A stretch of 63,657 bases of DNA, counting the filler, from Rozella allomycis CSF55 (Eukaryota): assembly GCA_000442015.1 (NCBI GenBank). It is 5 parts of 5 records of this genome, joined end to end, with 100 filler letters (N's around TTAATTAATTAA, not from the genome) between each part and the next. Parts side by side here need not be neighbours in the genome. Positions count along the whole stretch, not along the records: positions 31,096 to 49,574 come from KE561326.1; 4 more parts are not named here. One strand, 5' to 3'. Of the stretch, positions 3,001-57,525 are shown piece after piece. The position numbers and the translations under genes are program-made. The notes beneath the pieces were generated by a model. That model saw nothing but the letters and a program-made list of their open reading frames with translations. It had not been told where the DNA came from and did not search any database. Within the stretch, counting starts at the first letter, position 1. Each line of letters begins with the position of its first letter.

Positions 3001-3639
3001 AGAGTGCAGAAATTCTCACAAACAGAGGCGTTATACTACAGATTACAGGAAGCAATTCTGAGGCCATGAAAGATTTCAAAGTAAAGTTTTGACTTAAATT
3101 TACTCTGATGTCTGTCGAGATTAATCCAAAATATCATCTAGCTTACTTTAACATGGCAAATCTGTATTTTTCACAGCTTCAATATGAAGTAGCTTTAGAA
3201 AATTACAACAAGGTATCTAATTATTAACAAGATTATTTCAAGTGCCTAGAAATTGTGCCAAAGGATGAAGAATCTCTTTTAAATAGAGCAATTACATTTG
3301 CTGCGCTGAAAAGTAATTTAAAGAGTGTAATTTCCTAGATTATCAGGATTCACTATCCGATTTTAATGCTGTTTTAGCGCTGAATCCGAACAATCCTCAT
3401 GTCTTTTTCAATAGGGCTCAAGTTTACCAAAAACTTGGTATTATTCATAAAAAGTTCCATATAGGAATGTTCTACTTTGCTGAATTGGATTATAAAAGGG
3501 TATTGGAATACATGCCTCAAGATCAAATGACAATGATGAGATTGGGCGATACGTAAACTGTTATAAATTCAATTATAGAATCGGTAAACAATCGAGGATT
3601 ACAGAAGCTATGGAGTGGTATGCTTCAATGGATGAATAA
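1..3639 (+). CDS. Multi-TPR protein (TTC6-like), 5'-partial, about 20 introns
   Basis: Successive TPR motifs (e.g. AYYQRARCKF, AYLLRAQIRY, ILTNRGVIL) join in frame after removing 26-31 nt introns (547-572, 798-826 etc.); stop TAA at 3637-3639. Confidence 0.85.
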
Positions 3640-17582: not shown

Positions 17583-17693
17583 AACATTAGCCTCTAAATC
17601 TAAAATAAAACATTAAAGTGGTTAGGAGCATTTCTTTTTACAAATTTCTGATTCGATCTACTACCGATTTTTTACCCCAAGCGCTTTTATCAC

Positions 17694-18515
17694 ATGTTTT
17701 TTGATTGCCATTGTCACTTAGTTAATCGATATTTCTCAAAAGAAGCCATAGATACAATCTTAAAGAGATGCGCTAATGATATCCATCTCGTTTGTGTGGC
17801 AGAAAACGAGGATGACTTTGATGAGCTTCTACAGCTAAAAGCTCAAAACTGTAATATTTCTATTTGTCTCGGCTTACATCCTATACAAGCAGAAATAAAC
17901 AATGATCTGCAAATACATCGATCAATTTGCGAAAAGGACTGGGAGAAAATACAATTTAAATTCGCTGATTGTTTGCACACGTCTAGGTGCGACGGAATCG
18001 GTGAAATAGGGTTAGATTTTTCTCCGCATATATTCCAAGCCAACAAGAATGTATCTATTGAGAAGCAAAAAGAAGATCAGCTACTAGTTTTTAAGAAGCA
18101 ACTCGAACTTGCAAAGAAGTTTGATCTTTTTGTAAATGTTCATTCACGACAGGCAGGACATTATGCTATTGAGGTTCTTGAAGAGTACGAAATTCGTAGG
18201 TGTATACTTCACGCATTTGATGGGAAATTTAAGTATGCATTAAGAGCGTGCGCAAATGGATGGTTTTTGTCGATACCGGGAAATGTAAAGAGGAGTGATA
18301 AGTTTCAAAAGATGGCCAGAGAATTGCCATTAGAGAATATACTCATCGAGAGTGATGCTCCAGCTCTATCTGCTTTCCCAGGGGAAAGATCGTCACCTTT
18401 AGATGTTATAGATACATTGAATTTCGTTGCGGAATTAAGAAAAATCGACAAGAATACATTAATGCGACAAATTGAAGCAAATTTTGCTCGATTGACATCA
18501 AAGTCTTATTCATAA
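17694..18515 (+). CDS. TatD-family nuclease, copy 2
   Basis: Near-identical to copy 1 (four amino-acid differences). Confidence 0.92.
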   Translation: MFFDCHCHLVNRYFSKEAIDTILKRCANDIHLVCVAENEDDFDELLQLKAQNCNISICLGLHPIQAEINNDLQIHRSICEKDWEKIQFKFADCLHTSRCDGIGEIGLDFSPHIFQANKNVSIEKQKEDQLLVFKKQLELAKKFDLFVNVHSRQAGHYAIEVLEEYEIRRCILHAFDGKFKYALRACANGWFLSIPGNVKRSDKFQKMARELPLENILIESDAPALSAFPGERSSPLDVIDTLNFVAELRKIDKNTLMRQIEANFARLTSKSYS

Positions 18516-18657
18516 TATTAGACGGTATATGAATTAGGAAAATAGTTAATAAATATCTTTTTATATTTAATTCACTATTCATACAAATTTTCTTGTGTGC
18601 TTATCTGAGTTTGTAAAATGAAATTTCGAATTTAGAAAAGGCATGTCACTGAAAGTA

Positions 18658-18757
18658 NNNNNNNNNNNNNNNNNNNNNNNNNNNNNNNNNNNNNNNNNNN
18701 NTTAATTAATTAANNNNNNNNNNNNNNNNNNNNNNNNNNNNNNNNNNNNNNNNNNNN
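18658..18757. other. 100-bp scaffold gap with artificial TTAATTAATTAA linker (also 30996-31095, 49575-49674, 51447-51546)
   Basis: Identical 12-mer with stops in all six frames, centred in four N runs. Confidence 0.95.
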
Positions 18758-20712: not shown

Positions 20713-20872
20713 AATGTGATTACGTTAAAAAATTCCAGTAAAATGGATTTCATTAAAGTTTATTTTTATTTTGTTGATCTGTATAATCTAANGATAATTG
20801 GCGATCCAGAGAAGAAATAAAATGCGATTACGTTAAAAATTTCAGTACAATGGATTTCATTAAAGTTTATTT

Positions 20873-23210
20873 TTATTTTGTTGATCTGTATAATCTAAAA
20901 AGGACAAAGCCCGCGGTACCCACTAAGGCTGCCGTTAAAATAGAAATTGTTGTTATTTTAGCAATGTTAACAGACGCTAGTCGAGAATTTACATTAATTT
21001 GTGAAGAAATGATTCTAAAACATCTAAATTTGAGGTTTACGGTTCCATTGCGTTTGCGGCAAGTAAATTATACAAATCGTTCATGAAATTATCTTTCACT
21101 GAAACAGACAAGGGGAAGGGTAGTGAATATTTGCGACAAAAGTCGTCTGGTTGAACTGGAAATCTTTGGTGGACAAGATCGCATTCGCTTTTTGTAGCAA
21201 CTACTACCAGGGGGTAATTGATCAAGTTAAATTGTTCCTTTAAAAAAATCACGTGTTTAGTACTGTAATTTGTGCGATATATGAAAATGAATTCACATCA
21301 GCAGAGTCGTAAAGTAGACATATCAAGTCACATGCATTCATTTTCGATGGATTTGATAAATACTCATGATCACAACATGGTGGAATCTCAGTCATTATCA
21401 AATATTTTTCACTTCCTTTGAATTCCGCTGTATTCACAACAGAATATGATTGAGTGGAGGGAGTGTAATTATCTTCCATCGCTTTGCCAATGAATCGTCT
21501 CAGGAGGCTTGTTCTGGAAATCAAAAATTCTAAAATTTTACTTTCCGGATCCTGTGGCGCCAAAAACATAGCAGTGGAGAGTNTAAATATTTTTCACTTC
21601 CTTTGAATTCTGCTGTATTCACAACAGAGTATGATTGGGTCGAGGGAGTGTAATTATCTTCCATCGCTTTGCCAATGAACCGTCTCAGGAGGCTTGTTCT
21701 GGAAATCAGAAATTATAAATTTTACTTTCCGGATCCTGTGGCGCCAAAAACATAGCAGTGGAGAGTGTTCCTGGTAACCCGGCCTTTCTTTTTATCAATT
21801 TGGCGACTTCTTTTGACTTTTACAGCCTGTGTTGTATCCTATATTTAAGCTTTCGTTTCTAATACCCCTTCATAGCCGAGGTATGCCAAGTATTTCAAAG
21901 TAAGACGATAATCTAATAAAGTAGTCATGCTAAATTGACATGTCTTATTTTAATGTACCTCCATTGAGCCAAGAATCCTTGGAGCGTCAGAAATCCTTGA
22001 TCGTTCGTAACCGTGGACCCTTGCCCCTGCTCGTCCCAGGGTAGCGTTGGACATATTGAAAACATTTTATTTAATTCTTCATTATTCAAAGCGCCATCTT
22101 TGTCCTTTTTAAAATTATTATTCTAAATACTTTATCAAATACATAAAAAAGTTCAGTGAAAAATTGGTATCCCTTCGGGCTCAATTCTACGCAGCATTCA
22201 TCATCAACATCAAGTGGAGGATGAAGAAAATCATGGCGTAAAATTAAATCATCGCCATAGCCAAATTTACGAAGAACAGTCCACGTGGTTTCCAACCTAC
22301 CGCGCTGAATGAAGAGGCGGTGAAGATAAAGAAAACCATCAAGTGTTAGACTATCATTTAAGACACCTTCATTGCCACTAGATCTTACAACTTCCTTTAT
22401 TCCCTCCAATTCTTGTTGTTGAAGTGGTGCCAAAAAACACTTTCTTTGGAAAAGGTTTAATTCTTCGTCATTTAACAAACCATCCTTGTCCAGATCACAA
22501 ATTTGAAAAATCCTTTTTAGTGCATCTTCGCAAGCTGCCTTTAATACATGCTCTCTGGAATCATAGAGTGGCGCGGTCGGGTGAAGGACTGCTTTTTGAG
22601 CAAAATAAAATGCTTCGCTCACATTTAATAAAGTTTTTGCTGAGCATTCAACGCATGTTTCCACTTCCTAATATTATATTTCAGTAAGTATTGGTTTTAC
22701 TTTGTAGTCCGACATTATTGGTATCATTTCTTCTTCTAACATTTCATTTGTGACATCTTCACCTCTAATGTCAATTTTATTTCCAATCAACACAATTGGG
22801 ACATTCACTCCCAAAGATCTTATACGTGGTAGCCAGTAAGTTGACACTCGCTTTTTGGTTTCATCATCGTCCACTGCGTAAACAATACATATAACATGAC
22901 ATTTTTTGATTTCATTTTCTATATCCTCCCTATCTTCAGGTCTTGCTAAGAAAACGATAAGCCCATCACATTTACTAGATGTATCTACAATTTGAGTGAA
23001 AACATGGTCTGGTGTCGCCTCAGGTGGAACAGTGACAACCGGCAAAACTGGCTCTACCTTGAATACATTTTTATTTTGCTATTACTTGTGCAACAAACGC
23101 TTCTTTGACCAAGGTCATAATTAAAGTGGATTTGCCTACATTTTCAATATTATATTATTAATATATTTTTTACCATCTCCAAGAACGAGAATTCTAACTT
23201 CTCTTCTCAT
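20873..23210 (-). CDS. GEM1: Mitochondrial Rho GTPase Miro
   Basis: GTPase-EF hand-GTPase-TM layout; CVECSAK, FYFAQKAVLHPTAPLYD, QRGRLETTWTVLRKFGY; eight introns; allelic duplicate around N at 21583. Confidence 0.95.
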
Positions 23211-23657
23211 ATTGAATCACAAAGAAGTTGAGAAATTTCCCTTTACCTTTCGTGCGCATGCTCCTTCCAAATTGAAACAAACTGCGCATGAGTATTTATA
23301 TTTTAAAGTAAAAGGGGGTTTAGAATTTCCAGATTCCAAAAAGTCTATGAAAGGTAAGTGGTAATTGTAATGGGTGAAGTAGTACAATTTCTATAGAAAA
23401 AAAGATGTAAAATCTATCAGTTGTGTTAAATTTTAATACATGTCAATAAAATATATCTTTATTCATTCAATACAGGTTTGTACCGACGCTANATGTTTTA
23501 AAGTAAAAGGGGGTTTAGAATTTCTAGATTCCAAAAAGTCTATGAAAGGTAAGTGGTAACTGTCATGGGTGAAGTAGTACAATTTCTATAGAATAAAAGA
23601 TGTAAAATCTATCAGTAATGTTAAATTTTAATACACGTCAATAAAATATATCTTTAT

Positions 23658-25482
23658 TCATTCAATACAGGTTTGTACCGACGCTAGGACAACTTTATCT
23701 TTGCTGTAAGGATCGAAAAGACGTATTAAACTATCTCCCAAATTGTCGTTCAACGAAATATGCCCAGAAGAGGCAAACAATTTTGTTTTCTCTTGAACAG
23801 ATAATAGGTCAATGCAACATTTGCTATAATTAGATCTATTCTTAATAGTCAATATTTTTACGAGATTGAAATATAGACATCCTTTTGCCTTTTCAGTACA
23901 AAAAATTGGGAAAATATTGGATCACAACCTTCAAATTTTACGCAAATCATGTAAATAGCATTTGAAGGTATATCATCTGACAAAGAAACACATTTTATAT
24001 ACAGGGTAAAAACTTTTTTAGGGTCTGAAATGTCGTATTAACAATTTACTTTTACCCGCCACAATTTCTGGTTGATGTTTGTCAATTTGTTCCATTTGGA
24101 CAAATTGATTAGACTTTATCCTATTAATTTCTTCGTGCAAAATACAGTTTTCTGATTTTAATTCTTCTTTCTCGATTTCTAGCTGAATAAAGATCACACT
24201 GAGGATTACTGATTTAAATTGATTAATAAAGTCACAAAAACTATGATCTGTTCGAAGATTATTTGANAAATTGATTAGACTTTAGCCTATTAATTTCTTC
24301 GTGCAACATATAGTTTTCTGATTTTAATTCTTCTTTCTCGATTTCTATCTGAATAAAGATCACACTGACGATTACTGATTTGAATTGATCAATAAAGTCA
24401 CAAAAACTATGATCCGCTCGAAGATTATTTGATTCTGAAACAAATTTAAGAAAATCTTCTTCGGTGAAATATTTATTCTTCACTTCTTTTTCTACGAATT
24501 GACAAATATTCTTGTATTTTAAGATATCCAAATTTCTGTTATTTTCGTTGGCTATTCGTTTATTGTCACCTTTTATTGTCAAATACAAGGAAAACCTTTT
24601 ATTTTCAATAATTCCGCCTCAAGTGATATTATTTTCTGCTGCTTGTCGGATAGGTTTTTTGTTATTAATTGAAACTTTTTTTCATCCTCCATGACCTGAT
24701 TTTGATACCTTAGCAGTAAATCGTCACACCTTTTTTGTAGAAATTGTTTTTCGTTATTTATGGAATCTAGAAGCTCGGTTACCTAAAAAATCGATAATCT
24801 ACTATTTACGTTTTGATATGGGAACAAATCAGTGTTTTCTTTGGACAGTGTCTTTTTTGCTAGTACAAGCTAATGTAAGTTGTCATTCATGATTACTTCA
24901 GCAAGTTCTGAAGCCGAATTGTTTAATTCGTTGGACAAATGCCGGTTGAGAGTTTGTAGATGAATATTTCTTTCTTCCATAATCCGTATAGATTCTTCAA
25001 GCGAGTAGTTTTTACGTCTTAANGCAAGCTAATGTAATTTGTCATTCATGATTACTTCAGCAAGTTCTGAAGACGAATTGTTTAATTCGTTGGATAATTG
25101 CCGGTTGAGAGTTTGTAGATGAATATTTCTGTCTTCCATAATCCGTATAGATTCTTCAAGTGAGTAGTTTTTACGTCTTAAATCATCAATTTCAATTTGG
25201 TATTTAATCAATTGATTTTCCACTGCACTTTAATGAGTATTTAAGTAAACCAATACATTTGGGTTTCACTGCTTCTTTCTTTTAATTTTTGTTGTGCTTC
25301 ATTTAGCTGTGACCTTAATTGATTGGCGAGGGTTTGTCTGCCTATTAACTCATTGTCTAGGCTTTACAGTTTATATATTTGGACGTTTGTTTGCCTATGT
25401 GAGGAACGGAATATTAATACTCGGAGCATTTATCAAGTTTTGTGGGTGGAATTCTAGACCTCACAGATTGCAGCACAGGCAT
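23658..25482 (-). CDS. Uncharacterised coiled-coil protein with beta-rich (possibly C2-like) C-terminus
   Basis: Spliced frame MPVLQSVRSR...LANQLRSQLNEAQQKLKE...YQIEIDDLRRKN; interrupted by allelic duplicates at N 24267 and 25023. Confidence 0.55.
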
Positions 25483-25861
25483 AAAAAATATAAACAAAAT
25501 AAACTTAATCGTATATTTATTCGGACTTTATTTTAAACAAGTACATTGCCAAATATGAACTGGGGACCCTGGGCTCAGNATTGGCTAGGCTTTACAGTTT
25601 ATGAATTTGGACGTTTGTTTGCCTATGTGAGGAACGGAATATTAATACTCGGAGCATTTATCAAGTTTCGTTGGTGGAATTCTAGACCTCACGGATTGCA
25701 GCACAGGCATAAAAAATATAAACAAAAATAAATTTAATCGTAATTTATTCGGACTATATTTTAAACAAGCACATTGCCAAATATGAACTGGGGACCCTGG
25801 GCTCAGGGGCTGAAATTCTTCCATAAATTTCCATTCAAACAACATCAACCCCTGCAATAAA

Positions 25862-26403: not shown

Positions 26404-27356
26404 TTATGTGTTTACCTTTATAGATTGACATAAAGGTGGGTCATCAGTTAGGACATAATCAACCTGAAAATCAACAATCATTTCTTCCATTTCGTTTGGT
26501 TTATTCACAGTCCAGACTCCAACCTCTTTATTTATAGAATGAGCCCATCTATCATACACACATTAAAAGTAATACTCTGTGTATGTTCGATTAAATGTTC
26601 CTTTTAAAAGACTAAAAATTTGAGCTCCCTGAAATTCGTGAAAAGTTGGTGACGTCGTCTCACCGATAAAAGCAATCCGAAATTTGTCTTGAAAAATGTC
26701 ATGGGCATTTTTAAAAAACATGAAATCCCACACACCTATAATAATGATTGGTTTTAACCTTTCCAATGCTCTAANGCGTCTCACCGATAAAAGCAATCCG
26801 AAATTTGCCTTGAAAAATGTCATAGGCATTTTTAAAAAACATGATATCCCACACACCTATAATAATGATTGGTTTTAACCTTTCCAATGCTCTAATTCCG
26901 AGTGAATCCACTATGGTATTGATGGCGGTTAAGATATTCAAAGAATTATCATTTTTTACATCTAGGATAACAGTACATTCCTTCTGGTGACTATACAATA
27001 TCCAAATTAACAAATCAATGAGGAGAGGAACACTCTCGCTTTCGCCCGCTTTTAGATATTCAACATACCCTTTATAAGTAGATCGGTTTACAAGTCCAGT
27101 TCCATTTGTTGTTCGTTCTAGACTCTACTTTGCAATTACGTTAATAGAGTACCAAGTCATGCATAAGAATTACGAAATTGTCCTTTGTGAGGCGCAAGTC
27201 CATTTCAATGCCACTACCATTGTTCATCAATGCTTCTTTCATTGACATCATTGTGTTTTCAGGATACTTTGATGAATATCCTCTGTGACCTACACATTTA
27301 GCGCTACTCACAGCTTTATACAAAGAGAAGAATACATAAAATAGAATGAGACACAT
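26404..27356 (-). CDS. Glycerophosphodiester phosphodiesterase with signal peptide
   Basis: GHRGYSSKYPENT, EMDLRLTKD..ILMHD, WTVN, VLTDDP; allelic duplicate at N 26775. Confidence 0.9.
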
Positions 27357-27388
27357 TATTTTGTAAATTTCGATTGGATTTTATTATC

Positions 27389-28816
27389 TTAGATTCCTTT
27401 CACCATTCTCGCATAGAGGTTTTTTTGTTTTAATTCAAAAGCGGCTTTGAGTTTTTTAGCATTTTCAATCTCAACGCATATACCTTTATCTTCAAGATCT
27501 AATTCTCTTGCTTTTTCTAATGTCTCAAAAGATTCATCAAACTCATTAAGTGCCGCGAGTGCTGAACCTAAATAAATGCAATACAAACAGCATACCAAGT
27601 CTGAACATCGCCTTTACATTTTTTGAATCTATTTCTAATGCTTTTTTACAAGCAGTTTTGACTTTTATAAAGTCCTTGACTTTCAGGCAACAAGCAGCGA
27701 TGTTTAGCAAAATGGACAGTTTCAACGACTCAAATTGTTTCTTTTCATTTTCATCTTCAACACCCCANGTCTTAGATTCCTTTTACCATTCTTGCATAGA
27801 GGTTTTTTTGTTTTAATTCAAGAGCGGCTTTGAGTTTTTTAGCATTTTCAATCTCAACAAATATACCTTTATCTTCAGGATCTAATTCTCTTGCTTTTTC
27901 TAATGTTTTAAAAGATTCATCAAACTCATTAAGTGCTGCGAGAGCCGAACCTAAATAATTGTATTACAAAAAGCATACCGAGTCTGAATGTCGCCTTTAC
28001 ATTTTTTGAATCTATTTCTAATGCTTTTTTGCAAACAGTTTTGACTTTTATAAAGTCCTTGACTTTAAGGCAACAAGCAGCTATGTTTAACAAAATGGAT
28101 AGTTTCAACGACTCAAATTGTTTCTTTTCATTTTCATCTTCAACACCCCATGTACTTTCTACATATTTCAACCCTTTTTCGTAAAAATTCAAAGCTGACA
28201 CATATTTTTGTGCTTTAAACTTTTCATTGCCCAATAACTTTCTATCAGTGGCAAATTTTATTTTATCAGCATTCGTGTCAGCAATTTTCTCGTAATCAAT
28301 CAACTCTACCTCAAATTTCAAAGTAGAGTTTGGAGGGATTTTAGGAGGAGATCCACTNGTGGTGTCAGCAATTTTCTCGTAATCAATCAATTCCACCTCA
28401 AATTTCAAAGTAGAGTTTGGAGGGATTTTAGGAGGAGATCCACTTGCACCATAAGCATATTCAGGTGTGCATATTAGCTCAGAAATTTCACCAACCCTCA
28501 TTGTTGAGACACCTTGATCCCATCCTAGAATTAAATTGTAGTCATGCACATGCCTTTTATGACTTGTCCTTTCCCAATCTTGAATGTGAAGGGATCATTC
28601 CTGTCCCGACTTGAGTCGAATTTTTGACCATCTAATAGAGTTCCTACGTAGTGAACTTTTCTTAAGCATCTTTTATATATGTGTACCGTATACTTCAGTA
28701 TTTGGTTCTACCAACGGTCCAGCCCCCTCGCGTATTACTTTCTTGAATAATCCTTTGTCCTCAGTCAAAGTTTCATAACCAACAAATTCATTAGCATTAA
28801 ACTCAGTTGTCGTCAT
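27389..28816 (-). CDS. FKBP-type PPIase with TPR domain (FKBP4/5-like co-chaperone)
   Basis: [52 protein letters not shown], then TPRs; duplicated allelic pieces at N 27768 and 28358. Confidence 0.9.
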
Positions 28817-30826: not shown

Positions 30827-31451
30827 TAAATGTTTATTGAAAATTGTTTGCAAGAAGTCTTATTTTTTCATCCTTGATTTTACCAAGATTATTCTAATGA
30901 TAGCTTTATGTTATTTTTACCAATTTTTGTTCGGTCTGAAGTACTTTTAATCTTGCCAAAGAATTGTCCTATTTAGAAAGGAAAAAATATGCTTTNNNNN
31001 NNNNNNNNNNNNNNNNNNNNNNNNNNNNNNNNNNNNNNNTTAATTAATTAANNNNNNNNNNNNNNNNNNNNNNNNNNNNNNNNNNNNNNNNNNNNAATCC
31101 ATACTAAAAGAAACCAATTTATTAATTTTAAGAGAAGTACTATATCTTGTTTATTGTCATCTTGGTTATCAGCTCCTGTGTCTTCACCGACAACATCTTC
31201 GTTCTTTAGTTCTTCTTATCTTAGTAATTACCCTTCCTTTATTTCATGAATAAGTATCAATTCTCAATTCGCTTAATCGGGCTTGAAATTGATCTTATAA
31301 GAACAACCAATTCGAGTAAGAATTAAGATCAGAGTGTTTGAAAAGCCGGAAACGCAATTTATAAATATATCTATTTCAACTTCTTAAAAAAGGAAAACCT
31401 CATTTATTACTTTTAAGAGTAAACTCCCAGTCCGATAAAGAATAGATTTAT

Positions 31452-32627
31452 TCAATCAATTAGTATTCGTTTGAGAATTTGCGCTTTTCGTTGGTGATCG
31501 ATTGGGGTTTTGTCCAAGCTATTTTCTTTCACAGTATATAGTTCGGAGGGTTGAGTTTTTAAGAGCTTCGGTAGAATTATATTGCCAGGTCTTAATAAAG
31601 AAGTGTAATGAGATCGATAATCCACTCTGGAAAAGGTAAAGTCCACCAATCGATTTGGGAATTCTCGTATTAAAGGATCATAATCAGCTTTAACTTTTAT
31701 AATGTCACCTTTAGATATAAAATCATCTCCGTAATATTTTTTAACTATATAATCATTCTATTAACTGAGTACTAAGGTCGTTGTAAACTGTCGTTTCTTG
31801 TATATCTACCTTATCCACTTCTGAATCTACTATATTTTCAAAATGCAGCCCGCACAAGTACATTAATCTTCTCTGTAACGATCGCACCATCAAATCTTCC
31901 ACCAAATATGATGTACAATAAACATCAGTAAATGGGTGTGATAGATTCAGCTCATTTATCGCCTTTTCTATAACTTTCTTTTCAATCGTTTTAATATCCA
32001 TTTGATCTTTTCGTGTAAACACAATCGTTAATATGAAATTGAGAGTATTACTATTATTGGCAATTTTGTTCTCTTCAGGTGACTAAAGACATCCCAATCT
32101 AGCTCTGAGGTTTTCAAATCTATTGGCAGCACGAAAACAATGCATCGAAGCCTATTTAGCCAACTTATTGGGGATACTTGACAGATAAACTTGTATACTC
32201 CAGCACAAGATCTTTCCATTGGTTGATAGTATCCTTCGAATATCCTGGTGTGTCGACAAAGCTAAATATTGGATTTGATATACCAACGTCAAAGATATTT
32301 AAATACCTTGTGGAGCTCTATTTTCGCCAATTTTATCACTTACGTCCAAATTTGATGTTGTCACTCGAAATTTGTATCTGAATAAGTTGCGAAGAAGAGA
32401 TGACTTGCCTGATTTCCAAGGCCCGACAACAATTATCTAACTTGGTGAAAGTACACCCTTACTTCATCCGTTGAATTGTGACTTTTGTACGCGTGATAAC
32501 CAGGCTGGTAACTGCTCATTGCCATGTGAAATCTAATTATTCTCGTGAATAATCTTTTCGCCTGTGCCAATTCCCTTAACGATGGATACCAACGCATCCA
32601 TGTATTTTCTACGAGTATTTGAGGCAT
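31452..32627 (-). CDS. EngB/YihA-like GTPase (GTPBP8/Mrx8-like)
   Basis: G1 GPWKSGKSS, G3 FVDTPGY, G4 IVFTRKD; five introns, one needing a CG acceptor. Confidence 0.75.
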
Positions 32628-32964
32628 TGTGGTAGCTTAGCCACTACGATAATTTCAAAATTCAAATTCAAATAGCATGTGTTAATGAAAATTGTTCTGC
32701 GTAATTTCATGACAGAGGGAGTTTGAGTGAAGCGCTATTATTTGAATAATGCATGGTTCATTAAAATAGTTTGTTGCCTGTAACTAAATTGAAAGAAATG
32801 CTAAAATCCGTTTGTATAAGTAAAATGTATTCTATTTTTCATGATTACGTAATACTTCCATTTTCTATAACTAAATTGATCTAAAATCTCATTAATCTCA
32901 AGCACGTGAATATCTTTAGAAATTTGAAATTTCGAACACTATTGATCTGGTCTAGACTCTTGAC

Positions 32965-33276
32965 ATGACATTTCAACATGATAGATATGTAAACGAAGAA
33001 CCACAAAAACGCCAAAAGTTTATTTTTGTGTTCAGCAATATTTCATTTTTACATTTACCAATGTCACCAACAGCACCTGATCAATCCCAGCATTCCCCAA
33101 GCGAATTTACGCCAAGACAAAAAGGCCCTCTACGAAGAAGCCTTTTTGGTCCGATATCTGATGAAACAAGGATACTTCTTTCGGAATTTTCAAAGCAATA
33201 TGTATCTCAAATCTCTGATATCTCTGATAAAGATCAAAACAAATCATCTATGCCTGCAGACGCTGTAATCAAATAA
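32965..33276 (+). CDS. Small hypothetical protein with an RxLFGP motif
   Basis: Isolated ORF whose stop lies in AATAAA; alternative ATG at 33061; SP/TP sites. Confidence 0.5.
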   Translation: MTFQHDRYVNEEPQKRQKFIFVFSNISFLHLPMSPTAPDQSQHSPSEFTPRQKGPLRRSLFGPISDETRILLSEFSKQYVSQISDISDKDQNKSSMPADAVIK

Positions 33277-33615
33277 ATGCATTTATTAATCCTATTCCTT
33301 TTAATTAAATTATAAGTACGGTTGGGCAGAATTTTGAACTGGCTAAAATTTGCGAAAAGAATACAATGCGTCATGCGTGAATATTGAATAAATAATAATA
33401 ACATAAAAAGGCAAAGACCTTAAATTCCACAAAGGCTGGTAGGATATATCGTGGCCGTTGATCACCTGGCATGGCGGGACGGCGATAGTAATCCGAGAAA
33501 ATTTCGAGATAGATGTTTTGCAAATATTATTTACGCATTATATTAATAATATTATATGAAAAAAACAAAAAAGTCGACCATTGCCCTTTTGGTAAAATTA
33601 CTTTGCCACTCTTAT

Positions 33616-34482
33616 ATGGTGAAACCTATTGCGCCTATCGCAGACGCTATATCCCGTGTCTCTTCAAGTAACAATTTTTTCAATGACGGGAGAAAAATTG
33701 TCTGCGTTGCTCGAAATTACAAGTAACCAAAAGGCAAAGATATATAGCAACTAGGTCCCATTGCCAAGAAACAGGAAAGCCTATACCTGAAAAACCAATA
33801 TTCTTTTTGAAACCGCCATCCAGTATGGTAATGTTTCCTCGCCCAATATTAATACCTGAAGATACATTGGTCGAGCATGAAGTGGAATTTGGAGTTGTCA
33901 TGGGTAGAACAGCCAGAAATATTCCAGAAGACCATGCAATGAATTACGTTCGTGGTATGTTTTATTTAGACGTTGAAAAGGATATACCTTGGCAATTGAT
34001 GTGACTGCTAGAAAGATGCAGCGAGAATTAGCGAAAGAAGGTCTACCATGGACCATAGCCAAAGGAATGGACACCTTTTGCCCAGTTACGTAATTTTTTT
34101 AGCTATCTTTGTCGAAGAAAACTTATCGATGTTAGCGAAATTCCAGATCCACAAAATGTAAACTTTGAGCTTTACGTATGTGGAATCCATTTTTAATAAT
34201 AGGTGAATAATGTGCTACAGCAAACGGGCAACACATCTCAGATGATTTTTCCAATTACAAAATTGATTAGTGAAGCATCAAAGTATATGACACTTCAGAA
34301 AAACGATTTAATGTTGACAGGTACAATTTGATGAATTAATTGACGTAGGTACACCGAGTGGTGTTGGTCCACTGAGGATCGGCGATAGAGTGAAAATCGC
34401 ATTGAACATTGATCAAGCACATTCAGAGTTTTTCTGTGTACCTTTTCCTACAAAGCATCAAGGTTATGTTCAATTTAAATAA
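33616..34482 (+). CDS. Fumarylacetoacetate hydrolase-domain protein (FAHD1-like)
   Basis: KIVCVARNY, PIFFLKPPSS, HEVEFGVV, DVTAR, WTIAKGMDTFCP, LTGTPSGVG; five introns. Confidence 0.92.
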
Positions 34483-34893
34483 ATGTTATATATTATTAAA
34501 TCCTTTGTGTTCAAGTAAATTGGGATATTTTAAGTCATTCATTCAAATATATAACATAAATACTAGGATACATTTATGAATAATGTACAAGATCTATATG
34601 TTTATTATTTGCTTCCGTCTGATTAAAGGAATTAGCGTGTCATGGGAGATCACAGCCACAAAAAGACCCTGGTCACCTTTTTCGAAGATTGTATTAGCAC
34701 AGAAAACATGAATGCAAGTGGACAGCAATATTACTTTACAGTCGGAGAGGAAGCTATTATTAAAGTGAAGTCAATACCGTAAGAATAACACGATTTGTTC
34801 CAAGTTTAGGTAAATTAATTTTGTAAAACCAAAAAAGATATCATTGCAAAATCGTATCAGTCCTTCCTAGGAAAGAACTGAATAACAATTATN

Positions 34894-36208
34894 CTTGCAA
34901 TGTTTTTCCTTTGCTGAAATTAACAAATTCCAGCCAATTCTTTTTTTCAGAAACTACTTTATGAATTAAGCGTTTCCTTTCATCCAAAGTATCGTCAATC
35001 AAACATTTTCCGTTAATCAAAAGTATATCAAAAATTATAAAGCAAGGGTGAACGGAATCCTCACTATCATTTAGAGCTGCAGTCTTTAAGGTTCCAAAGG
35101 GCAGAATTTCTCCTTTGTTTTCATCCATCACTACCATTTCTCCATCTAAAATCGCACTAATTAATTGAAATCGATAATTTTACTTTTCCACTTTATCGTT
35201 AAACAATTCATGAATTTTCTTTGTCAAGGACCCATCTGATTTGGTGGCGCCATACAAAAATGTATAATCCGTTCCATTTCTACTCCAATATTTATATTCG
35301 TCTCCATTTTTATGAAGCTGTATTCGTTCTCCATCAAGTTTAGTTTCAATATAAAACTCTTCATTACTCATCAGCTCTATAACCTTTTCAAATTCCTCTC
35401 TGTCAGCCAACATTGGTTTAAAAGGTTGAAATATTTGAAGCGCATTCGTCAAATATCGCTTGGAAGGATCATTCAGTGTTTCAACCAGCTGCTTCAAATC
35501 AGAACAAACATAGTAATACTCAACTGCATCAACATGATAACTTTTCAATATCGTTTTTTCACTCACGCCAAGTTTCAAGTCTTTTAAAATAATTCTTATA
35601 ATCCAAGAAAGTTCAGTTGCTGTTAAACTTCTAATCATTCTCGTAAACACTTCTCGTCTTTATTCATTGAAAAATCATATAAATACTTTTCGGATGATTC
35701 ATTAAGTTCATTTAATAAATTATCAACATCTTCCAAGTCCAACTTTGATTCAACTACATTTCTTTGAGCAATAATTGGTTTCGCTACACCGGCAAAATCA
35801 TTAACACCCTTGAATTTCAAAAAAAACTCAATTTTCGTACTTTGTTTATAAATTTTTTCCAATTCTTTAACACAAAAGCATCTTGAGAGCTTTTTGCTAT
35901 CGACAATGTGTCAACAATAACATCCCCTAGTTTTGACTCTTTCATTCCATAACCCGATCTCTCTTTATCCAGCTGCATTTATGACTCCTCAAAGTATTAC
36001 TTGCGGTAACAAAAGTCGCATCAACAAATACATATTTTTACATTCTTGAATTCGTATATTCTAAAAGACAATCATAAAAATTCAATACTTGAATTAACTG
36101 ATTCACTAGTGATCTACGCTGGTCGACTTTAGATGTCTTTTTAATGGAATCCAAAACCTGAACAAAATTTGAAAATTTCATTAAAAATTTTACACGGCGA
36201 TTGGACAT
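34894..36208 (-). CDS. LIG4: DNA ligase IV, 3' part lost at N 34893
   Basis: LDKERSGYGMKE, WIIRIILKDLKLG, KPMLA, ETKLDGERIQLHK, WSRNGTDYTFLYG, ILDGEM. Confidence 0.9.
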
Positions 36209-36278
36209 GTGTAATCAAATATCAATCTTTTAATCGACTATAATTGCATTTTATTTAATTCTTATTTTATTTCAGTAT

Positions 36279-36865
36279 TTATTCCTCTAAAGGGTATGCT
36301 TTTAAAATAAATACATCTTCAAGTGGACGGTCACTACTAAATACATGATAAATAACTTACTTGGAATCAGTTGGAACAAGACCAAGACGTTGGATCACTT
36401 TCATGCCAGAATACACTCTACCAAAAATTGTATGCTTTCCTATCAATTAAAAAGATATCAAAATACCATCCAGCCAAGGGGTAGGCGCCAATGTAATGAA
36501 AAATTGAGAACCATTTGTATTTGGTCCGGCATTTGCCATGGATAAAATACCAGCTCCAGTGTGCTTCAATGAAGATTGAATTTCATCCTCAAAAGTTTCA
36601 CTATTTCAATTCATTCCTCTATTTTACCCGTATATGGAAGAACCCCCTCTTCCAGTACCTGTAGGATCTCCTCCTTGAATCATGAAATTCTAATTTAATG
36701 CTGCTTTCATAAAATTACATGAATGATACGGTGAAACTTTGTATTGTTATAGTATCCTTTCTTTGCAAGCTCATAAAAATTCTTGCAAGTCCTAGGAGCC
36801 TCGTCTACATACAGCTCCAATACAAAATTTCCTGTCGATGTTTCTACAACTACTTTTTGAGACAT
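36279..36865 (-). CDS. PPIL1: Spliceosomal cyclophilin PPIL1-like
   Basis: [49 protein letters not shown]; four introns. Confidence 0.9.
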
Positions 36866-36919
36866 AGGTACAAGCCACAGGTAATGTAAAAGTAGCTTTA
36901 AGCCGCAAAGTTTATTCTA

Positions 36920-37360
36920 ATGGCATTATTCTATACTTTGGAAGTTGTTTATCCCGCTGTAAAGTCAATTATTTCACTGCAAACTAACGATATTATGCTT
37001 GTAAAGCCTTGGTTGCAATATTGGATTTTGTATGGATTTGTGCATTGTTTTCCGATAAATGCCGCGTCATTGTTTGTTTCCACGATAATGAGATGGATTT
37101 TTAGAATTGCTTGGGATCTTTGGCTGGTAGAAATGAATGGACACGTAACTGTGTTTGAATATTTGGTGGAACCATATGTGCTACCGTGGGCTCCATTCTT
37201 TATTGATATTGTATATGTTGTAAAGACTAATTGCAAGCAAATATTGAACAAGTACGTCGAGCAATTCAATTTAGATACTTATTGGGACAAATTGGCAAAT
37301 TTTAACGATACATTGGTTACATTCGTACAAACCTCATTTAGAAGACACAAAGTTGATTAG
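36920..37360 (+). CDS. TB2/DP1/HVA22 (REEP/Yop1-like) membrane protein
   Basis: VYPAVKSI, WLQYWILYG, NG..VFEYLVEPY. Confidence 0.7.
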   Translation: MALFYTLEVVYPAVKSIISLQTNDIMLVKPWLQYWILYGFVHCFPINAASLFVSTIMRWIFRIAWDLWLVEMNGHVTVFEYLVEPYVLPWAPFFIDIVYVVKTNCKQILNKYVEQFNLDTYWDKLANFNDTLVTFVQTSFRRHKVD

Positions 37361-37432
37361 ATTATTTCAAATAAATGATGTTTTGTTTAATTTTACATTC
37401 GTGAAATTTAGGTTTCCTAATACAGTTAGAAA

Positions 37433-38830
37433 ATGTTTAATTCTACGCTTAGATCGCGATTTCCCTCGATTATTCAAAAACGATTTCTAAATGCATTAGC
37501 TCCAAAGCATTCTTTTTCCTATGAGCAAGGATACACAAATGTAACAAAGTTGTCAAATGGAATTACGGTGTGTACGGATCCTTCAGTTGGAGAAACACTT
37601 GGCTTAGGCTTGTTTATTAAAAAAGGGTCCAGACATGAAACTGAAGAGACAAAGCACGCAGCCAATGCTATTGGAAAACTTGCACTCCGTCGTACAAAGA
37701 AACACAACCCACTTGAAAGAGCACAAAATCTTGCTTCTATAGTAGGAAATTTCACGGTACAGGCGGAAAGAGAATATATTCTGGTTAATTCAATCATTGA
37801 GCCAAAAATGTTGCAAACAACGATGGAAACATTTGAACAAATTATAAAAGACATGGAATTTGTAGAAAAAGATCTAGAAGAAGTAAAGAGCGCCATCAAT
37901 TTTTCAGTGGAAAAAAAGAAACTAGAGAAAATGGAATACGTTCCTGAATTGATTCATCGCGTTGCTTTCAATGAAAGAAGTCTTGGTCGATCGATAACTA
38001 TGGCGGATAAGTTGGACATAAATTCGATACAGAAATTCTGGAATCAGCATATCATTCCCGAAAACTTGATGATTGTTTGTGCAGGGGGTGAACATGAAGA
38101 AATTATAAAGTTGGCGGAAAAGAGTTTTGGAGATTTAAAAAATCCAAAATTAAATAATGAAATAATATACGAAGATCCAATTTATACCGGCGGGAATCAC
38201 TTTTATCCTGACAGTTCCTTGCAGTTTGGCAATGTCGGGCTTGGCTTTAAAATCCCTTGCGCTCTTGATTTAAAATCAATGTTTGCTTTCTCAGTGGCCA
38301 ATCAAATTCTTGGCGGTGGTTCTTCGTTTTCAGCTGGAGGTCCAGGAAAAGGAATGTTTACTCGTTTATACCATGAAGTGCTTTCTGTGTATTGGTTCAT
38401 GGAAAGTGCTTTTAGTCAATCTTTCGCCTATAAAGATTCGAGTTTATTTACAATATTTGGCTCATCTGAACCAAGAACACTCCCTAATGTAGCAGGGATT
38501 TTAGCTGACAGCATTATTAATTTGGATCGTGGCATAACTCCAGAGGAACTTCAAAGAGCTAAGAATATGATCAAATCAAACGTCCTGATGAATGTGGAAT
38601 CAAGGACTGTCCAAGTTGAAGATATTGGTCGGCAAGTCATGACCTATGGTTCAAGAATGTTGGCAAAAGATCTAATGAAAAGCGTTGATGAGATTTATAT
38701 ACATGATATATCAAGAATAAAAGAATACATGCTTTCACATCCAGTGACTCTGGTAACAACTGGCAATTTTACAAGCAATTTGGATTGTCTGTATCCTTTG
38801 GAAAAGAGAAACTTTAAATTAAGTAAATAA
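37433..38830 (+). CDS. MAS2: Mitochondrial processing peptidase alpha subunit
   Basis: M16 fold; Gly loop GGGSSFSAGGPGKGMFTRLY; EDIGRQV; intronless. Confidence 0.95.
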   Translation: MFNSTLRSRFPSIIQKRFLNALAPKHSFSYEQGYTNVTKLSNGITVCTDPSVGETLGLGLFIKKGSRHETEETKHAANAIGKLALRRTKKHNPLERAQNLASIVGNFTVQAEREYILVNSIIEPKMLQTTMETFEQIIKDMEFVEKDLEEVKSAINFSVEKKKLEKMEYVPELIHRVAFNERSLGRSITMADKLDINSIQKFWNQHIIPENLMIVCAGGEHEEIIKLAEKSFGDLKNPKLNNEIIYEDPIYTGGNHFYPDSSLQFGNVGLGFKIPCALDLKSMFAFSVANQILGGGSSFSAGGPGKGMFTRLYHEVLSVYWFMESAFSQSFAYKDSSLFTIFGSSEPRTLPNVAGILADSIINLDRGITPEELQRAKNMIKSNVLMNVESRTVQVEDIGRQVMTYGSRMLAKDLMKSVDEIYIHDISRIKEYMLSHPVTLVTTGNFTSNLDCLYPLEKRNFKLSK

Positions 38831-38946
38831 ATTATTTTCTTTTCACGTCTAACTCAATTCAGAAACAGGTTGTTTTGCTGTTTCGTAATTTTGCCAAACT
38901 AAGCCACGTATTTTTATTTTCGGGTTTCTTCCTACCCTGGCTAGAC

Positions 38947-39454
38947 ATGTCTGTAAGTATTTTATAAAAGTATAATTATTTAGAAGCAAGTCAAGAAAGT
39001 CGAAGAAAAAACCACACTTGGACCAACTGTTCGCGCCGGTGAAAATGTTTTCGGTGTTGCACACATCTATGCTTCATTTAACGATACTTTTGTCCATGTA
39101 ACTGATCTTTCAGGAAGAGAAACATTTGCTCGTGTTACTGGAGGTATGAAAGTCAAAGCTGACCGTGACGAACCATCACCATATGCTGCTATGGTAAGAA
39201 AAAATAGTTTTGTTTAAATAAAGTTGGCTGCTCAAGATGTTGCTGCTAAATGCAAGGAACTTGGATTGACTGCTCTCCACATTAAGATGAGAGGTGTTGG
39301 TGGAACTGGACCAAAGACTCCAGGACCAGGTGCTCAAAGTGCATTGAGAGCTTTGGCTAGATCAGGAATGAAAATTGGCAGAGTTGAAGATGTTACTCCA
39401 ATCCCAACAGATAGCACACGCAGAAAGGGTGGTCGCCGTGGTCGTCGTCTATAA
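38947..39454 (+). CDS. RPS14: 40S ribosomal protein uS11
   Basis: [30 protein letters not shown]-like [23 protein letters not shown]; two introns. Confidence 0.97.
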
Positions 39455-39522
39455 ATAAATCGACCTTTTTCATTCAAAAATAGTTTAATGGAAAATCAAA
39501 TTTATTATATATAAAATTATAA

Positions 39523-41900
39523 TTATTCGAGCATTGCATACTAATGTTCACTAATGATAATTGGTTTACCATGTCGTCATCTTCTTGTTCGTCTTTGGCT
39601 TCTTCCACTGGCGCAGCGGTTTCAATTTCATCTTCCAAAAACTTATGTAAGAGACTAAATTAGTGTACCTTGGATTTTTCTTCTGGTGAAATGGAAGATG
39701 AACCACATTCAATTGAGCTTATCAAAGAGATTTCCTTTGCCTTTATAACTTGCCAAAATCCATCTCTTCTTTTAGACCCCTTGAATGATGACTTCAATTT
39801 ACCAAGATAATTGTTAAATTCTTCCCATTCTTGTTCTTGAACAGATCCTTTTCTCAATGCGACTACACATTCACAAGCCTTTGCATACATTTGATCACCA
39901 AATGATTCATTGACAATTTTTATGATCATTTCAGACATTTCCTTTATTGCTAACAAAGTTTAATTAAATCCATTACCTTTAGAAACTAAATCACGCTTTC
40001 GATTGTTAATCATTGAATTAAAATCGCCAATTGGATCAGCAGTTCCTACACTAGATATTTCTGCTGATATGGAATCCTTGATAAATTAGAAGCAAATTTT
40101 GTACGGCTAATGATTTTTCAGTCACATCTCCAGGGCGCACACCTTCCAATGATTTCTCCAATTCTTCAAAATCATTCGAAGCGAAGATTCTAGCGGCTGG
40201 AGCTTCTTCTTTCTCTACCATTTCCAGCTTGTACAGATTATGTAATGTAAAGGCACTTTCAGCTGCCTTTTTCGATTCTAATGGAGAAATATGTTTTATT
40301 AGTTCTTCATCTAATTCCTTCAAAGGCTTATCGGGGTGTAAAACCCTTTCTTGTATTGCTTGATAAACTGCCTGATAAGCCACATTGTAAGTATCCCTTG
40401 GCTTGAAAAGTTCCATCGGATCACCATCCTCATCTCTAGCTGCAGTCATCAAATCCATCGATCCCATCCACTCATCAAAAGCATTGCTTTGTTCAGCGGT
40501 CATTTCTTCCTTTGGCAGCCCCGGGAACGTAAATCTTCTTACATCTTCTGAAAACGGAAGAATATTCATGATCAAACATTCTTTTTCAGCTTTTATGTGC
40601 GGCATTAAACAAACAAGCTTTGGACTTGCATTATCATGGCGAACATATCGCGCAATGGCACATGCGTCTTTTTCAAACATTGCATGGATAAAGGAAGATA
40701 ACGAAACTTGAGCTTCAACTATTTCAGGGTGACATGTGACAGCGTAAGTGCTACCCATGAAAGACTCCCGGTCTATTTCTGTTACAGGAACAAATCCGAT
40801 AATCTCAAGGCCTTTCGAAGTCTCCAATGACATTGCTTTCTCTTCAGACTCATTAAACGGAACTAGAGTCTTCCCATATCTATAAGCCTTAACGAGTTGT
40901 TCCTTTTCCACAACGTCGCTGGCTTCGTCTTTGGTGAAATATGAAGTGTTCCTAATCACTTCCATTGTTTTGTCTTTAATTTCTTCACTTTGCATTGAAA
41001 TCGCTGACCCTTTCTTTGCAGTTGGTAAAGTTCTTTGTGTTGATTGAGTGTACATGAAAATTGGTATTTGAATTGACTTTCCAATGCTCAAATTCCCTCT
41101 AAACGTTGTCACTTGCCTTACAGTCTTTGATCTGAAGTGGGAAAGAATTTGTAGCGCTTCATTGATTGGCAAAACCTGTCCATCCACTTCTTTCACCAGT
41201 TTGTACATTGCCAGTTGACTCTGTTGACAACCACTCATTTCTTGTTCCAAAGATTCCATCGTTTCTAATTCTTCTTCGGTGTGAAATCCAAATCCACTAT
41301 TTCTTATTCGTAGATGAACTTACATGACTGTTAGTTGTATCTCCAGAGCTTTCATTTCACCGACAATATCAGTAAACCCATCCATGTTGACAGGCCCATT
41401 CGCATCAGTCAATAAATAAATCTTTCTTGTAAATTTCTTTCCTTTGGTCTTTTTAATTAACATATCCGTGGCCACAACAATCGCATCAATGCAGTCGGCC
41501 TCTTGATTGCCCAATTCCAAGTTTGGGTCATTAATATATCTTATAAAAGACATATCAATACTTTGAAATTCTTTCGCTACCACAATATTTTGATAAGAAC
41601 TTGAATCTTCAGCAAGATCATTGTCAGTCTCTAACTGTTGCACGATACATTTTTTCTTACCGTTAGTTCCCGTCAATATTAGCGCAAGCTGATCGCTTTT
41701 TCTAGCATCCATTAGCTTTTTTACTCTATTATGAATTTCTATACCTTTTGTTGAATCATAACAGAATATGCTTTCAAAGCTTTATCAAGATACTTTATGT
41801 CTTCTTCGGGTGGATTATTCCACATAGAAGATCCTATCTATGCTTTGTCTTTCAAAGAGTAAATTACATCTAAAATAAATACTATAGCGTCTTTTGACAT
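39523..41900 (-). CDS. KU80: Ku80
   Basis: vWA (MSKDAIVFILD, DAIVVA, IYLLTD), core (KAYRYGKTLVP, LPFSEDVRRFTFP), C-terminal DNA-PK-binding helical domain; seven introns. Confidence 0.93.
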
Positions 41901-42059
41901 ATCTTGAAATTTCAAAGGTTCGAGGTCATAAAAAGTTTAAGACCATTCGCATTCAACTAATAAAAAATAGAACTGATTCTTAAATTATTATAGAACTCAT
42001 CATGCCACAAAAATGGTAACAATAGGAAAGATCTAGTAAAATAGGTTAAGGAATGAAAT

Positions 42060-42420
42060 TGGCTTTTGAAATTTAGTCAGAAACGTGGAATCTAATAAAA
42101 CTGGCGAAGTGGCGTTTTATGAAAAGCTTAAAGATTGCCATGTGCAAAACCCGCTAGACTCAAGACTGGGAAAAGATATCTGAAGACGAGTACATTTATA
42201 TTCTTGCATGACTAAGGCCTGTTTCTGATCGTTGCGATCTTGATAAATTCATTAAAGACTCTATCTCAAAATAGGCAGATTTAGAGGCGCAGAAATTCAG
42301 AATATTATACACAGAGACATAAAACCAAAGAGCTTATTACTTGACCCAGAAGAAAAGAAATTAAAGTTAATTGATTTTGATTTAGCTGTGAATGGAGAGG
42401 AGATATGGATTCCCCTTCCT
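42060..42420 (+). pseudogene. Degenerate protein kinase relic
   Basis: 42301-42390 reads NIIHRDIKPKSLLLDPEEKKLKLIDFDLA; stops and frameshifts upstream. Confidence 0.7.
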
Positions 42421-42439
42421 TTAATAATCATCATCGGTT

Positions 42440-42867
42440 GATATATTAAAAGAAATTTCAAACTATAATTACATGATATATTTGACGAGAGTGTAGACCA
42501 TATTATTTATGAACGATATGTCAAGGTTAAAAACCAAAATAACGACGAGAATATCTGATCTTTCTTGGTATTTGAGAATAGAAAAAGAGAATCTCAATCG
42601 GAATGCACCCAGACTTTTATCTAACGAACTACTTTTTAGTCGTTGACTCGTTTTATAAAGAAATTTAATCTTTGCAGGAATAACTTTGACAATTCTCGTT
42701 TTCGCAGAACAAAAACACATGATAGAATTCAAACATCTACATGCCAAAAGAAAGAAATGCTCGTAAAGTATAAATGTAAATTCAAAGAAACTACTGGAGA
42801 AATGTCTGAATTGTTCAATTTGTGCTTAAATGATATTAAGAAAGTGGAGCCAATCGTTAGAAGGGCA
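42440..42867 (+). pseudogene. 5' part of a decayed paralogue of the 46394 gene
   Basis: Aligns to about 46500-47068 with deletions and frameshifts; ends at N 42868. Confidence 0.8.
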
Positions 42868-49574: not shown

Positions 49575-49749
49575 NNNNNNNNNNNNNNNNNNNNNNNNNN
49601 NNNNNNNNNNNNNNNNNNTTAATTAATTAANNNNNNNNNNNNNNNNNNNNNNNNNNNNNNNNNNNNNNNNNNNNGCCTTTGGAAATTATGGGCGGGATGG
49701 TGAGTTTAAAAGACGGGATGAATTATTTCCCCAAGCCTGCCCTTCCTAA

Positions 49750-51120
<1,371 letters not shown>

Positions 51121-57504: not shown

Positions 57505-57525
57505 GCCATCAATTTAGGTTGTGAT

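Follow-up and report, generated by a model that had tools for sequence, protein, structure and literature searches.

Within a 63,657-nt (63.7-kb) stretch of genomic DNA from the parasitic cryptomycotan fungus Rozella allomycis CSF55 (GenBank assembly GCA_000442015.1; five parts joined end to end with filler, hereafter the window), a gene for a P-loop GTPase on the minus strand is interrupted by a 26-nt element at 32026-32051 that begins with GT and ends with CG. We consider it likely that this element is a genuine U2-type spliceosomal intron with a CG acceptor, and that acceptors in which the A at position -2 is replaced (BG acceptors) are truly used, a reading that draws on reading frames, protein motifs and the geometry of the surrounding introns. 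Two further candidates of this kind, both GT-TG introns, lie in a TPR-repeat gene and in a Miro/Gem1-like gene of the same window.

Gene structures were obtained with a dynamic-programming gene parser that combines codon log-odds, trained on the flanks of 54 confident introns, with weight matrices for donors and acceptors and a prior on length. The GTPase gene (31452-32627) is laid out as follows, with the basis of each assignment in brackets.

32463..32627, minus strand: exon 1, with the ATG at 32627 in the parse model (sequence, parse)
32437..32462, minus strand: intron 1, 26 nt, GT-AG (parse)
32344..32436, minus strand: exon 2, holding the G1 motif GPWKSGKS (parse, Pfam)
32318..32343, minus strand: intron 2, 26 nt, GT-AG (parse)
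32178..32317, minus strand: exon 3, holding the G3 motif DTPG (parse, Pfam)
32152..32177, minus strand: intron 3, 26 nt, GT-AG (parse)
32052..32151, minus strand: exon 4, with a strand, a helix and ..KLPII (parse)
32026..32051, minus strand: candidate GT-CG intron GTAATA...TTAACG, 26 nt (sequence, parse, scan)
31773..32025, minus strand: exon 5, starting with IVFTRKD (G4) (parse)
31745..31772, minus strand: intron 5, 28 nt, GT-AG, which skips a TGA at 31753-31755 (parse)
31452..31744, minus strand: exon 6 with the stop, 96 more open codons, coding part 31744-31455 (parse)

An alternative in-frame start, ATG at 32525, is present in exon 1. Direct reading of the minus strand from 32051 to 32026 gives GTAATACTCTCAATTTCATATTAACG, 26 nt, in agreement with the sequence and position reported for the element in an earlier note on this DNA. 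That note had also described exons in different frames with a stop between them, and the three-frame translation and the gene parse both place exons 4 and 5 in different frames, the frame of exon 4 reaching a TAA within the element. Removal of the 26 nt joins the two frames into ..KLPII-IVFTRKD.., which rebuilds the strand plus the G4 motif just as the note had proposed, and the boundaries of this deletion allow no sliding. Measured from the donor, the next AG ends at 45 nt; its use loses G4, again as the note had it, and runs into a stop after 12 codons.

Downstream of the element, 180 codons are open, 84 in exon 5 and 96 in exon 6, with a normal 28-nt intron between the two exons. The P-loop GTPase motifs GPWKSGKS, DTPG and TRKD occur in the expected sequence, normally spaced, in exons 2, 3 and 5, with 62 residues from G3 to G4. 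When single exons were submitted to Pfam, exon 2 matched Dynamin_N at E = 5e-4 with 20.5 bits, short of the cut-off of 27, and its match to MMR_HSR1 was likewise sub-threshold.

When only canonical junctions were allowed, the parse of the window contained 173 GT-AG introns on both strands. They are very short and narrowly distributed, with 8 introns of 25 nt, 42 of 26, 44 of 27, 30 of 28, 19 of 29 and 9 of 30 nt (152 of 173 at 25-30 nt) and the others scattered. Base preferences were taken from a well-scoring set of 130 introns, drawn from models of at least 40 bits. The third donor base of these introns is A in 122, G in 4, T in 3 and C in 1, the fourth is A in 82, and position -3 is T in 69, A in 41, C in 19 and G in a single case. 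Only four measure 24 nt or less, those of 19-20 nt lying in doubtful places, and some introns of 31-47 nt occur in the parse, though few. The pyrimidine fraction at positions -17 to -3 is 0.52, compared with 0.51 for the window, and the earlier statement that these introns lack a polypyrimidine tract is thereby borne out.

The GT-CG element matches this profile closely. Its donor GTAATA fits the extended donor GTA(A/T) of the genome, its 26 nt is a modal intron length in the window and falls within the length class of the genome, and it has A at -3, as do 41 of the 130 introns. An A also stands at +23 (base 32029). The deviant base is the C at -2 (base 32027), which gives the 3' end ACG in place of the AG of a U2-type intron. 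Judged by its bases, the element is thus intron-like in all but position -2. U12-type introns carry the donor /RTATCCTT and the branch motif TCCTTAAC; a minor intron of this type was rejected, the donor here being GTAATACT, without TCCTT.

The A at +23 recurs across the window. It is found in 72 of 101 introns of 26-30 nt, as opposed to 34% of 1551 control GTA sites (P ~2e-14), which overturns the earlier impression that there is no obvious branch consensus. By length, it is present in 26 of 28 introns of 26 nt, 48% of those of 27 nt, 71% of those of 28 nt, 73% of those of 29 nt and 75% of those of 30 nt; in the 27-nt introns, the A is spread across positions 21-23. Because the +23 A drifts away from the AG as the intron lengthens, the signal is anchored to the donor, and it is likely to be the branch point. 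In 104 of 108 introns, the AG in use is the earliest one to end at or beyond position 25. Combined with the donor-anchored A, this use of the first AG places the 3' site in a window of 3-7 nt that is set from the 5' end. The proposal in the earlier note that the spliceosome chooses the 3' site by distance is therefore sustained in part: the narrow lengths of 26-30 nt, the fixed A and the 3-7-nt window agree with it, but AG is the acceptor in ~98% of window introns and is the first one after +23 in those 104 of 108, so the site is not chosen by length alone.

The other two BG candidates, which the earlier note had counted as GT-TG cases and which we located in the window, are:

3081..3107, plus strand: second BG intron, GTAAAG...CTCTG, 27 nt, GT-TG, in a TPR-repeat gene (parse, scan, Pfam)
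23145..23173, minus strand: third BG intron, GTAAAA...ATATTG, 29 nt, GT-TG, in the P-loop of a Miro/Gem1-like gene (NG-targeted scan, motif)

The element at 3081-3107 contains an in-frame TGA, and the canonical parse splits the TPR runs on either side of it into two genes 15 nt apart. In the Pfam TPR_1 alignment, model positions 1-25 are taken by residues 7-31 of the upstream exon and positions 3-26 by residues 12-35 of the downstream exon, whose residue 10 starts the next repeat. The first 9 residues of that exon fill positions 26-34 exactly, and only when 27 nt are removed; a 39-nt in-frame GT-AG alternative drops 4 residues and breaks the 34-residue register. The element at 23145-23173 carries A at +23. 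Its removal produces ..RILVLGD-ENVGKSTLIM.., with the P-loop signature GxxxxGKS, while the 38-nt GT-AG alternative yields LGDGKST and destroys the P-loop. The support for this case, at the level of sequence, is from the motif and not from the scan. In the GTPase, TPR and Miro cases, the next AG ends 45, 39 and 38 nt from the donor, respectively, which puts it 15-22 nt downstream of the presumed branch A, beyond the window used by ~95% of introns.

Non-AG introns were also sought without reference to motifs. In a relaxed parse, in which donors and acceptors of any dinucleotide were admitted at 2%, 8 non-canonical introns appeared among 182, and the only GT-nonAG one was 32026-32051; with any donor and acceptor allowed, no GC-AG intron was picked in the window. 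Of the seven non-GT donors, three (53228, 27780, 21552) lie within ~30 nt of an isolated N and three (16887, 16773, 11134) fall in antisense models of a duplicated gene. The isolated N at 53269, 27768 and 21583 adjoin these fake non-GT introns of the parser, as if they marked an indel or frame error. The seventh is a possible 28-nt GA-AG intron, GAAAGG...TATAG, at 26857-26884 (minus strand), in a gene with internal repeats; it has no adjoining N and is not antisense to another model.

In a dedicated scan, 5351 N-free segments of 24-31 nt that start with GTA, have a non-AG end and are flanked by at least 15 open codons on each side were scored by treating the end as AG and comparing the local parses. 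The GT-CG element ranked first with a gain of 11.7 bits, and no other segment exceeded 10; for scale, knocking out an AG-ended candidate costs more than 10 bits in only 36 of 372. The TPR case apart, the other loci with gains above 8 bits were dismissed by inspection, with the exception of 59650-59679. The segments 46603-46630 and 61986-62011/61906-61931 coincide with natural stop codons, the latter at the C-terminus of a DHHC protein, 8608-8633 lies within a kinase glycine loop, and 38823-38848 would fuse two genes. A further one, 21796-21823, falls in what we take, from the human Miro sequence, to be the Miro linker. Finally, 59635-59679 (minus strand), at the N-terminus of a DNA primase small subunit, could hold a GT-AG intron of 45 nt or, alternatively, a GT-TA intron of 30 nt (59650-59679), and conservation there is too low to choose between the two. 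A donor-side scan of 3236 of 8086 candidates, on the plus strand only, gave no gain above 9.0 bits.

Together, the BG acceptors (ACG, CTG, TTG) account for 3 of ~176 window introns, or ~1.7%. For the manually curated genes of Ganoderma lingzhi, the available part of the source gives 79 GT-BG introns among ~92,107, or 0.086% (PMC11590231). The rate in the window is ~20 times higher (Poisson P ~5e-4), and the earlier judgement that three non-AG acceptors are far above the usual stands in this respect.

Several points weigh against genuine use of these acceptors. All counts derive from one 63.7-kb window and from our own parse, some of whose models are spurious (antisense ORFs and fused neighbours among them), the assembly has ambiguous bases and gaps, and excision at the three BG junctions is deduced from DNA sequence, frames and motifs. 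The constancy of the final G, which the earlier note had stressed, is a matter of three introns. The parse gains of the TPR and Miro cases, 8.1 and 7.1 bits, are within the noise of the scan; gains of 8-10 bits also arise at natural stop codons and false fusions, so by gain alone only the GT-CG case stands out. NG ends occur at only 2 of ~8 loci with a gain above 8 bits, against a background of 12%, which is no enrichment. The Miro case emerged when NG ends were scanned specifically (3767 candidates, with 7.1 bits as the highest gain), and its discovery is therefore biased. In-frame GT-AG alternatives exist 12 and 9 nt downstream of the TPR and Miro cases. The public annotation leaves the two halves of the GTPase unjoined: we found no database protein of at least 82 aa containing exon 3, from which we conclude that the halves are kept separate there, and none of at least 159 aa containing exon 5. 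Protein and PDB searches returned no homologue beyond Rozella that confirms the GTPase junction. A search for RNA runs listed none that contains the stretch, and one run under the same species label, which had almost nothing in common with it, showed over 31096-42800 no cover on the GTPase gene and no joints, a neutral result.

The alternative that survives best, although we regard it as unlikely, is that the element is a normal intron that recently lost its AG, or seems to have: a point mutation may have made a young pseudogene or null allele, or base 32027 may have been miscalled, which would leave the gene broken and unspliced at this place. One A-to-C change would account for everything, and the 63.7 kb of assembly contain several gaps plus 21 isolated N. 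The public annotation also treats the locus as broken or partial, the search for RNA runs gave no support for BG splicing, and the GTPase has no detectable relatives outside Rozella and so could be dispensable. However, the 180 downstream codons are still open, and the same change, at -2 only and with the G kept, recurs in two other genes of the window, one of them the conserved Miro/Gem1 gene. The protein motifs of the TPR and Miro genes require the BG boundary, and all three introns are otherwise consensus in sequence, modal in length and flanked by long ORFs on both sides. Three independent null lesions or errors, all at -2, would be improbable in 63.7 kb (an estimate that is not read-based). 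Furthermore, at neither G-1 nor the donor did the scans, of which the one for donors was partial, reveal a lesion of comparable support; the non-GT donors, the GA-AG candidate aside, adjoin an N or are antisense.

It is distinctly less probable that a canonical GT-AG intron is used instead. In the GTPase gene, this would be either a 20-nt GTCTTT..AG intron (32071-32090) that keeps G4 or a 77-nt GTCACC..AG intron (32007-32083) that removes the motif. The counterparts in the TPR and Miro genes would be introns of 39 and 38 nt that run to the next AG. All of these options are frame-compatible, and a few introns of 31-47 nt do exist in the parse. Yet a GTC donor is found in only 1 of 130 introns, and those of 20 nt or less number 3 of 130, all in doubtful places, while an intron of 20 nt is too short to contain an A at +23. 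Among the 5050 frame-compatible deletions at the GTPase locus, 15 are GT-AG, and a GTA donor is available only to those that start at 32051 (74, 89 and 101 nt), all of which remove G4. As described above, the 39-nt option breaks the TPR register and the 38-nt option destroys the P-loop of Miro.

A reading with no intron at all, in which a truncated GTPase ends at the TAA within the element and a second gene starts at ATG 32001 as in the public model, seems to us very improbable. The canonical-only parse and the public annotation both split the locus here, and same-strand gaps of 15-32 nt occur elsewhere in the parse. But ATG 32001 is preceded, in the frame of the supposed second gene, by the G4 motif with its hydrophobic strand, and G4 is at the textbook distance from the G3 of the supposed first one. 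G4 is the guanine-specificity motif of the GTPase fold, and a GTPase ending before it would lack this motif. Finally, excision at the DNA level, as with the internal eliminated sequences of ciliates, whose ends follow the consensus TAYAG, can be practically dismissed: a TA-bounded 26-bp deletion (32030-32055) does restore the frame as ..LPIT-IVF.., with TA repeats 26 nt apart, but the host is a fungus with a TAA stop and not a ciliate, the ends differ from TAYAG, the element fits the intron profile of this genome, and we judge the TA-bounded alternative a coincidence.

The public record of this locus corresponds to a part of the gene proposed here. Exon 5 matches the NCBI entry 'hypothetical protein O9G_004930, partial [Rozella allomycis CSF55]' (P0017) with identity over the first 64 residues. 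This 137-aa protein, labelled 'partial', begins at the internal Met at 32001, just 3' of the GT-CG element, and splices exons 5 and 6 differently from the present model. No database protein of at least 82 aa was found to carry the four upstream exons. A search of 1.84 billion protein representatives returned only P0017 and two false matches to repeat proteins, and a PDB search with exons 4 and 5 gave no meaningful match. An Rfam scan of the window had 0 matches, as did a metagenome scan with a 24-nt string from the intron. The corresponding metagenome scan with the Miro exon reached 16 loci at only 31-45% identity, and thus no orthologue for comparison.

An intronless alpha-tubulin gene (49768-51117) ends with ..EEY followed by TAA TAA, which indicates the standard genetic code, and its product groups with animal tubulins at an identity of at least 90%. 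The GC content is ~34% and the gene density very high, both of which fit Rozella allomycis as described in the accessible portion of PMC8042348; the genome is intron-rich, with 2.5 introns per kb of coding sequence in the available text of PMC8476143. A tandem duplication with a period of ~5.75 kb (9595-12860 and 15384-18610, plus strand) comprises two near-identical copies of a Na+/H+ exchanger, each of 673 aa in the parse (Pfam Na_H_Exchanger, E = 1e-43), and likewise two of the 273-aa gene next in line. A gap of 605 N is located at 13128-13732, in addition to the 21 isolated N of the window. Four blocks of 100 bases, at 18658-18757, 30996-31095, 49575-49674 and 51447-51546, each consist of 12 called bases between two runs of 44 N.

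Very short same-strand gaps between a stop and the next ATG (15-32 nt) were noted at 3090-3108, 20710-20743 and 57502-57526 (plus strand) and at 27356-27391 (minus strand); the first is the GT-TG intron of the TPR gene, and the other three may be genuinely close neighbours or may hide additional introns that escaped recognition. Upstream of the Miro gene, 23200-25850 (minus strand) contains internally repeated coding-like units, ..RRKNYSLEESIRIME.. and ..IEIEKEELKSEN.., which the parser wrongly fused to Miro, whose start is probably an ATG near 23212. The parser also fused two genes that lie head to tail at 36920-39454 (plus strand), one mitochondrial processing peptidase-like and one for ribosomal protein S14 (uS11), by means of doubtful 40-nt and 19-nt introns.

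Introns in Rozella follow a ruler, in which a GTA donor is followed by a probable branch A 23 nt on and by the 3' junction 3-7 nt further. In ~98% of introns, the junction lies at the first AG in the short window after the presumed branch A. In the BG minority, where the A at -2 is replaced to give ACG, CTG or TTG, it would be made at the same distance, as we infer from the retained terminal G and from a geometry that offers no other usable site. The branch point may be so near the 3' site as to leave the catalytic centre within reach of just one or two dinucleotides. The terminal G would still pair with the first G of the intron. This G-G contact, a non-Watson-Crick one, is well established from structures of the spliceosome and is echoed in PMC10711555. 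What would be dispensable, at some cost, is the contact between A(-2) and the branch A.

Yeast offers a precedent, here as far as the available part of PMC10711555 reports it. Prp18 enforces a distance of at least 10 nt between branch point and 3' site and suppresses BG acceptors, and yeast lacking it uses ACG, CUG, UUG and UGG, including an ACG in PHO85, as well as branch-proximal sites (PMC10711555). A branch point close to the 3' site makes Prp18 and Slu7 unnecessary (PMC10711555), and the 3-7-nt distances of Rozella would put every intron in this Prp18/Slu7-independent regime. With fewer than 10 nt between the branch point and the 3' site, factors for second-step proofreading or measurement (Prp18, Slu7, Prp22) may perhaps have been lost or altered. 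Tentatively, and with somewhat less than even confidence, we propose that the donor fixes the branch A at +23, that ligation takes place at a G-ending pair 3-6 nt on, that A at -2 is preferred and not required, and that 1-2% of introns genome-wide would be GT-BG.

The components of this proposal have counterparts elsewhere, and a literature search, which did not extend to the Rozella genome paper, found no description of Rozella intron architecture, splice sites or BG acceptors. Tiny introns are known from ciliates, with ~25 nt in Paramecium and 15-16 nt in Stentor (cited in PMC13644364); Rozella resembles them in its narrow, ruler-like lengths, but belongs to another lineage, and the code of Paramecium differs. 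Microsporidia, the sister lineage, are parasitic and have compact genomes with very few introns of ~23-50 nt, a subject that PMC6349667 and PMC13644364 touch upon. Rozella is likewise parasitic with short introns, but unlike them it is intron-rich.

The closest architecture is that of the ultra-short introns of myxobolids and Dicyema japonicum, with a median of ~22-27 nt, GTa...AG signals and no pyrimidine tract (PMC13644364; PMC6543705 and PMC2222250, in the parts available). These also have a weakly conserved A that stands farther from the AG in longer introns, and is thus 5'-anchored (PMC13644364). Rozella shares the tiny introns, the reduced GTA..AG signals and the donor-anchored A; myxobolids and Dicyema, however, are animals and Rozella is a fungus with the A sharply placed at +23, so that the tiny-intron architecture arose independently. 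The acceptors reported for them are AG only, BG ends being unmentioned in the main text of PMC13644364, in contrast to the candidate BG acceptors of Rozella.

With Saccharomyces cerevisiae lacking Prp18, Rozella would share both BG acceptors and acceptors that lie nearer than 10 nt to the branch point, and in that yeast docking of the terminal G on the first base of the intron is still possible, according to the portion of the study at hand (PMC10711555). The yeast is a mutant with low usage, whereas Rozella would be a wild-type organism in which such splicing gives the sole productive mRNA of three genes. In other fungi, GT-GG, GT-TG and GT-CG introns exist and some have been validated (available parts of PMC11590231 and PMC7072748), and the survey in PMC7072748, as far as available, describes 3' sites as more flexible than 5' sites. 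In the available text on Ganoderma lingzhi, GC-AG dominates at 1.85% and GT-BG reaches 0.086% (PMC11590231), while the Rozella window has ~1.7% GT-BG and no GC-AG intron was found in it. The suggestion in the earlier note of an undescribed system was hence too strong, given the donor-anchored A of myxobolids and Dicyema (PMC13644364) and the BG acceptors of yeast without Prp18 (PMC10711555): the BG acceptors here are a relaxed variant of known tiny-intron splicing and not a new system.

If the proposal is correct, a few hundred GT-BG introns would exist genome-wide, invisible to standard annotation. Annotation restricted to GT-AG splits or truncates such genes, as the public GTPase model appears to do, so that for Rozella and comparable genomes both the number of genes and the tally of 'missing' domains may be biased. 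A fungal lineage would join the short list of those with introns below 30 nt and a donor-anchored branch point, the latter putative here. Rozella would have the first wild-type spliceosome known for the routine use of BG acceptors, making essential mRNAs, Miro/Gem1 included, with acceptors that model spliceosomes reject. The fidelity of the 3' site would then be tied directly to intron geometry, and the organism would provide a natural test of the role of the -2 A in the second catalytic step and of the contribution of Prp18 and Slu7.

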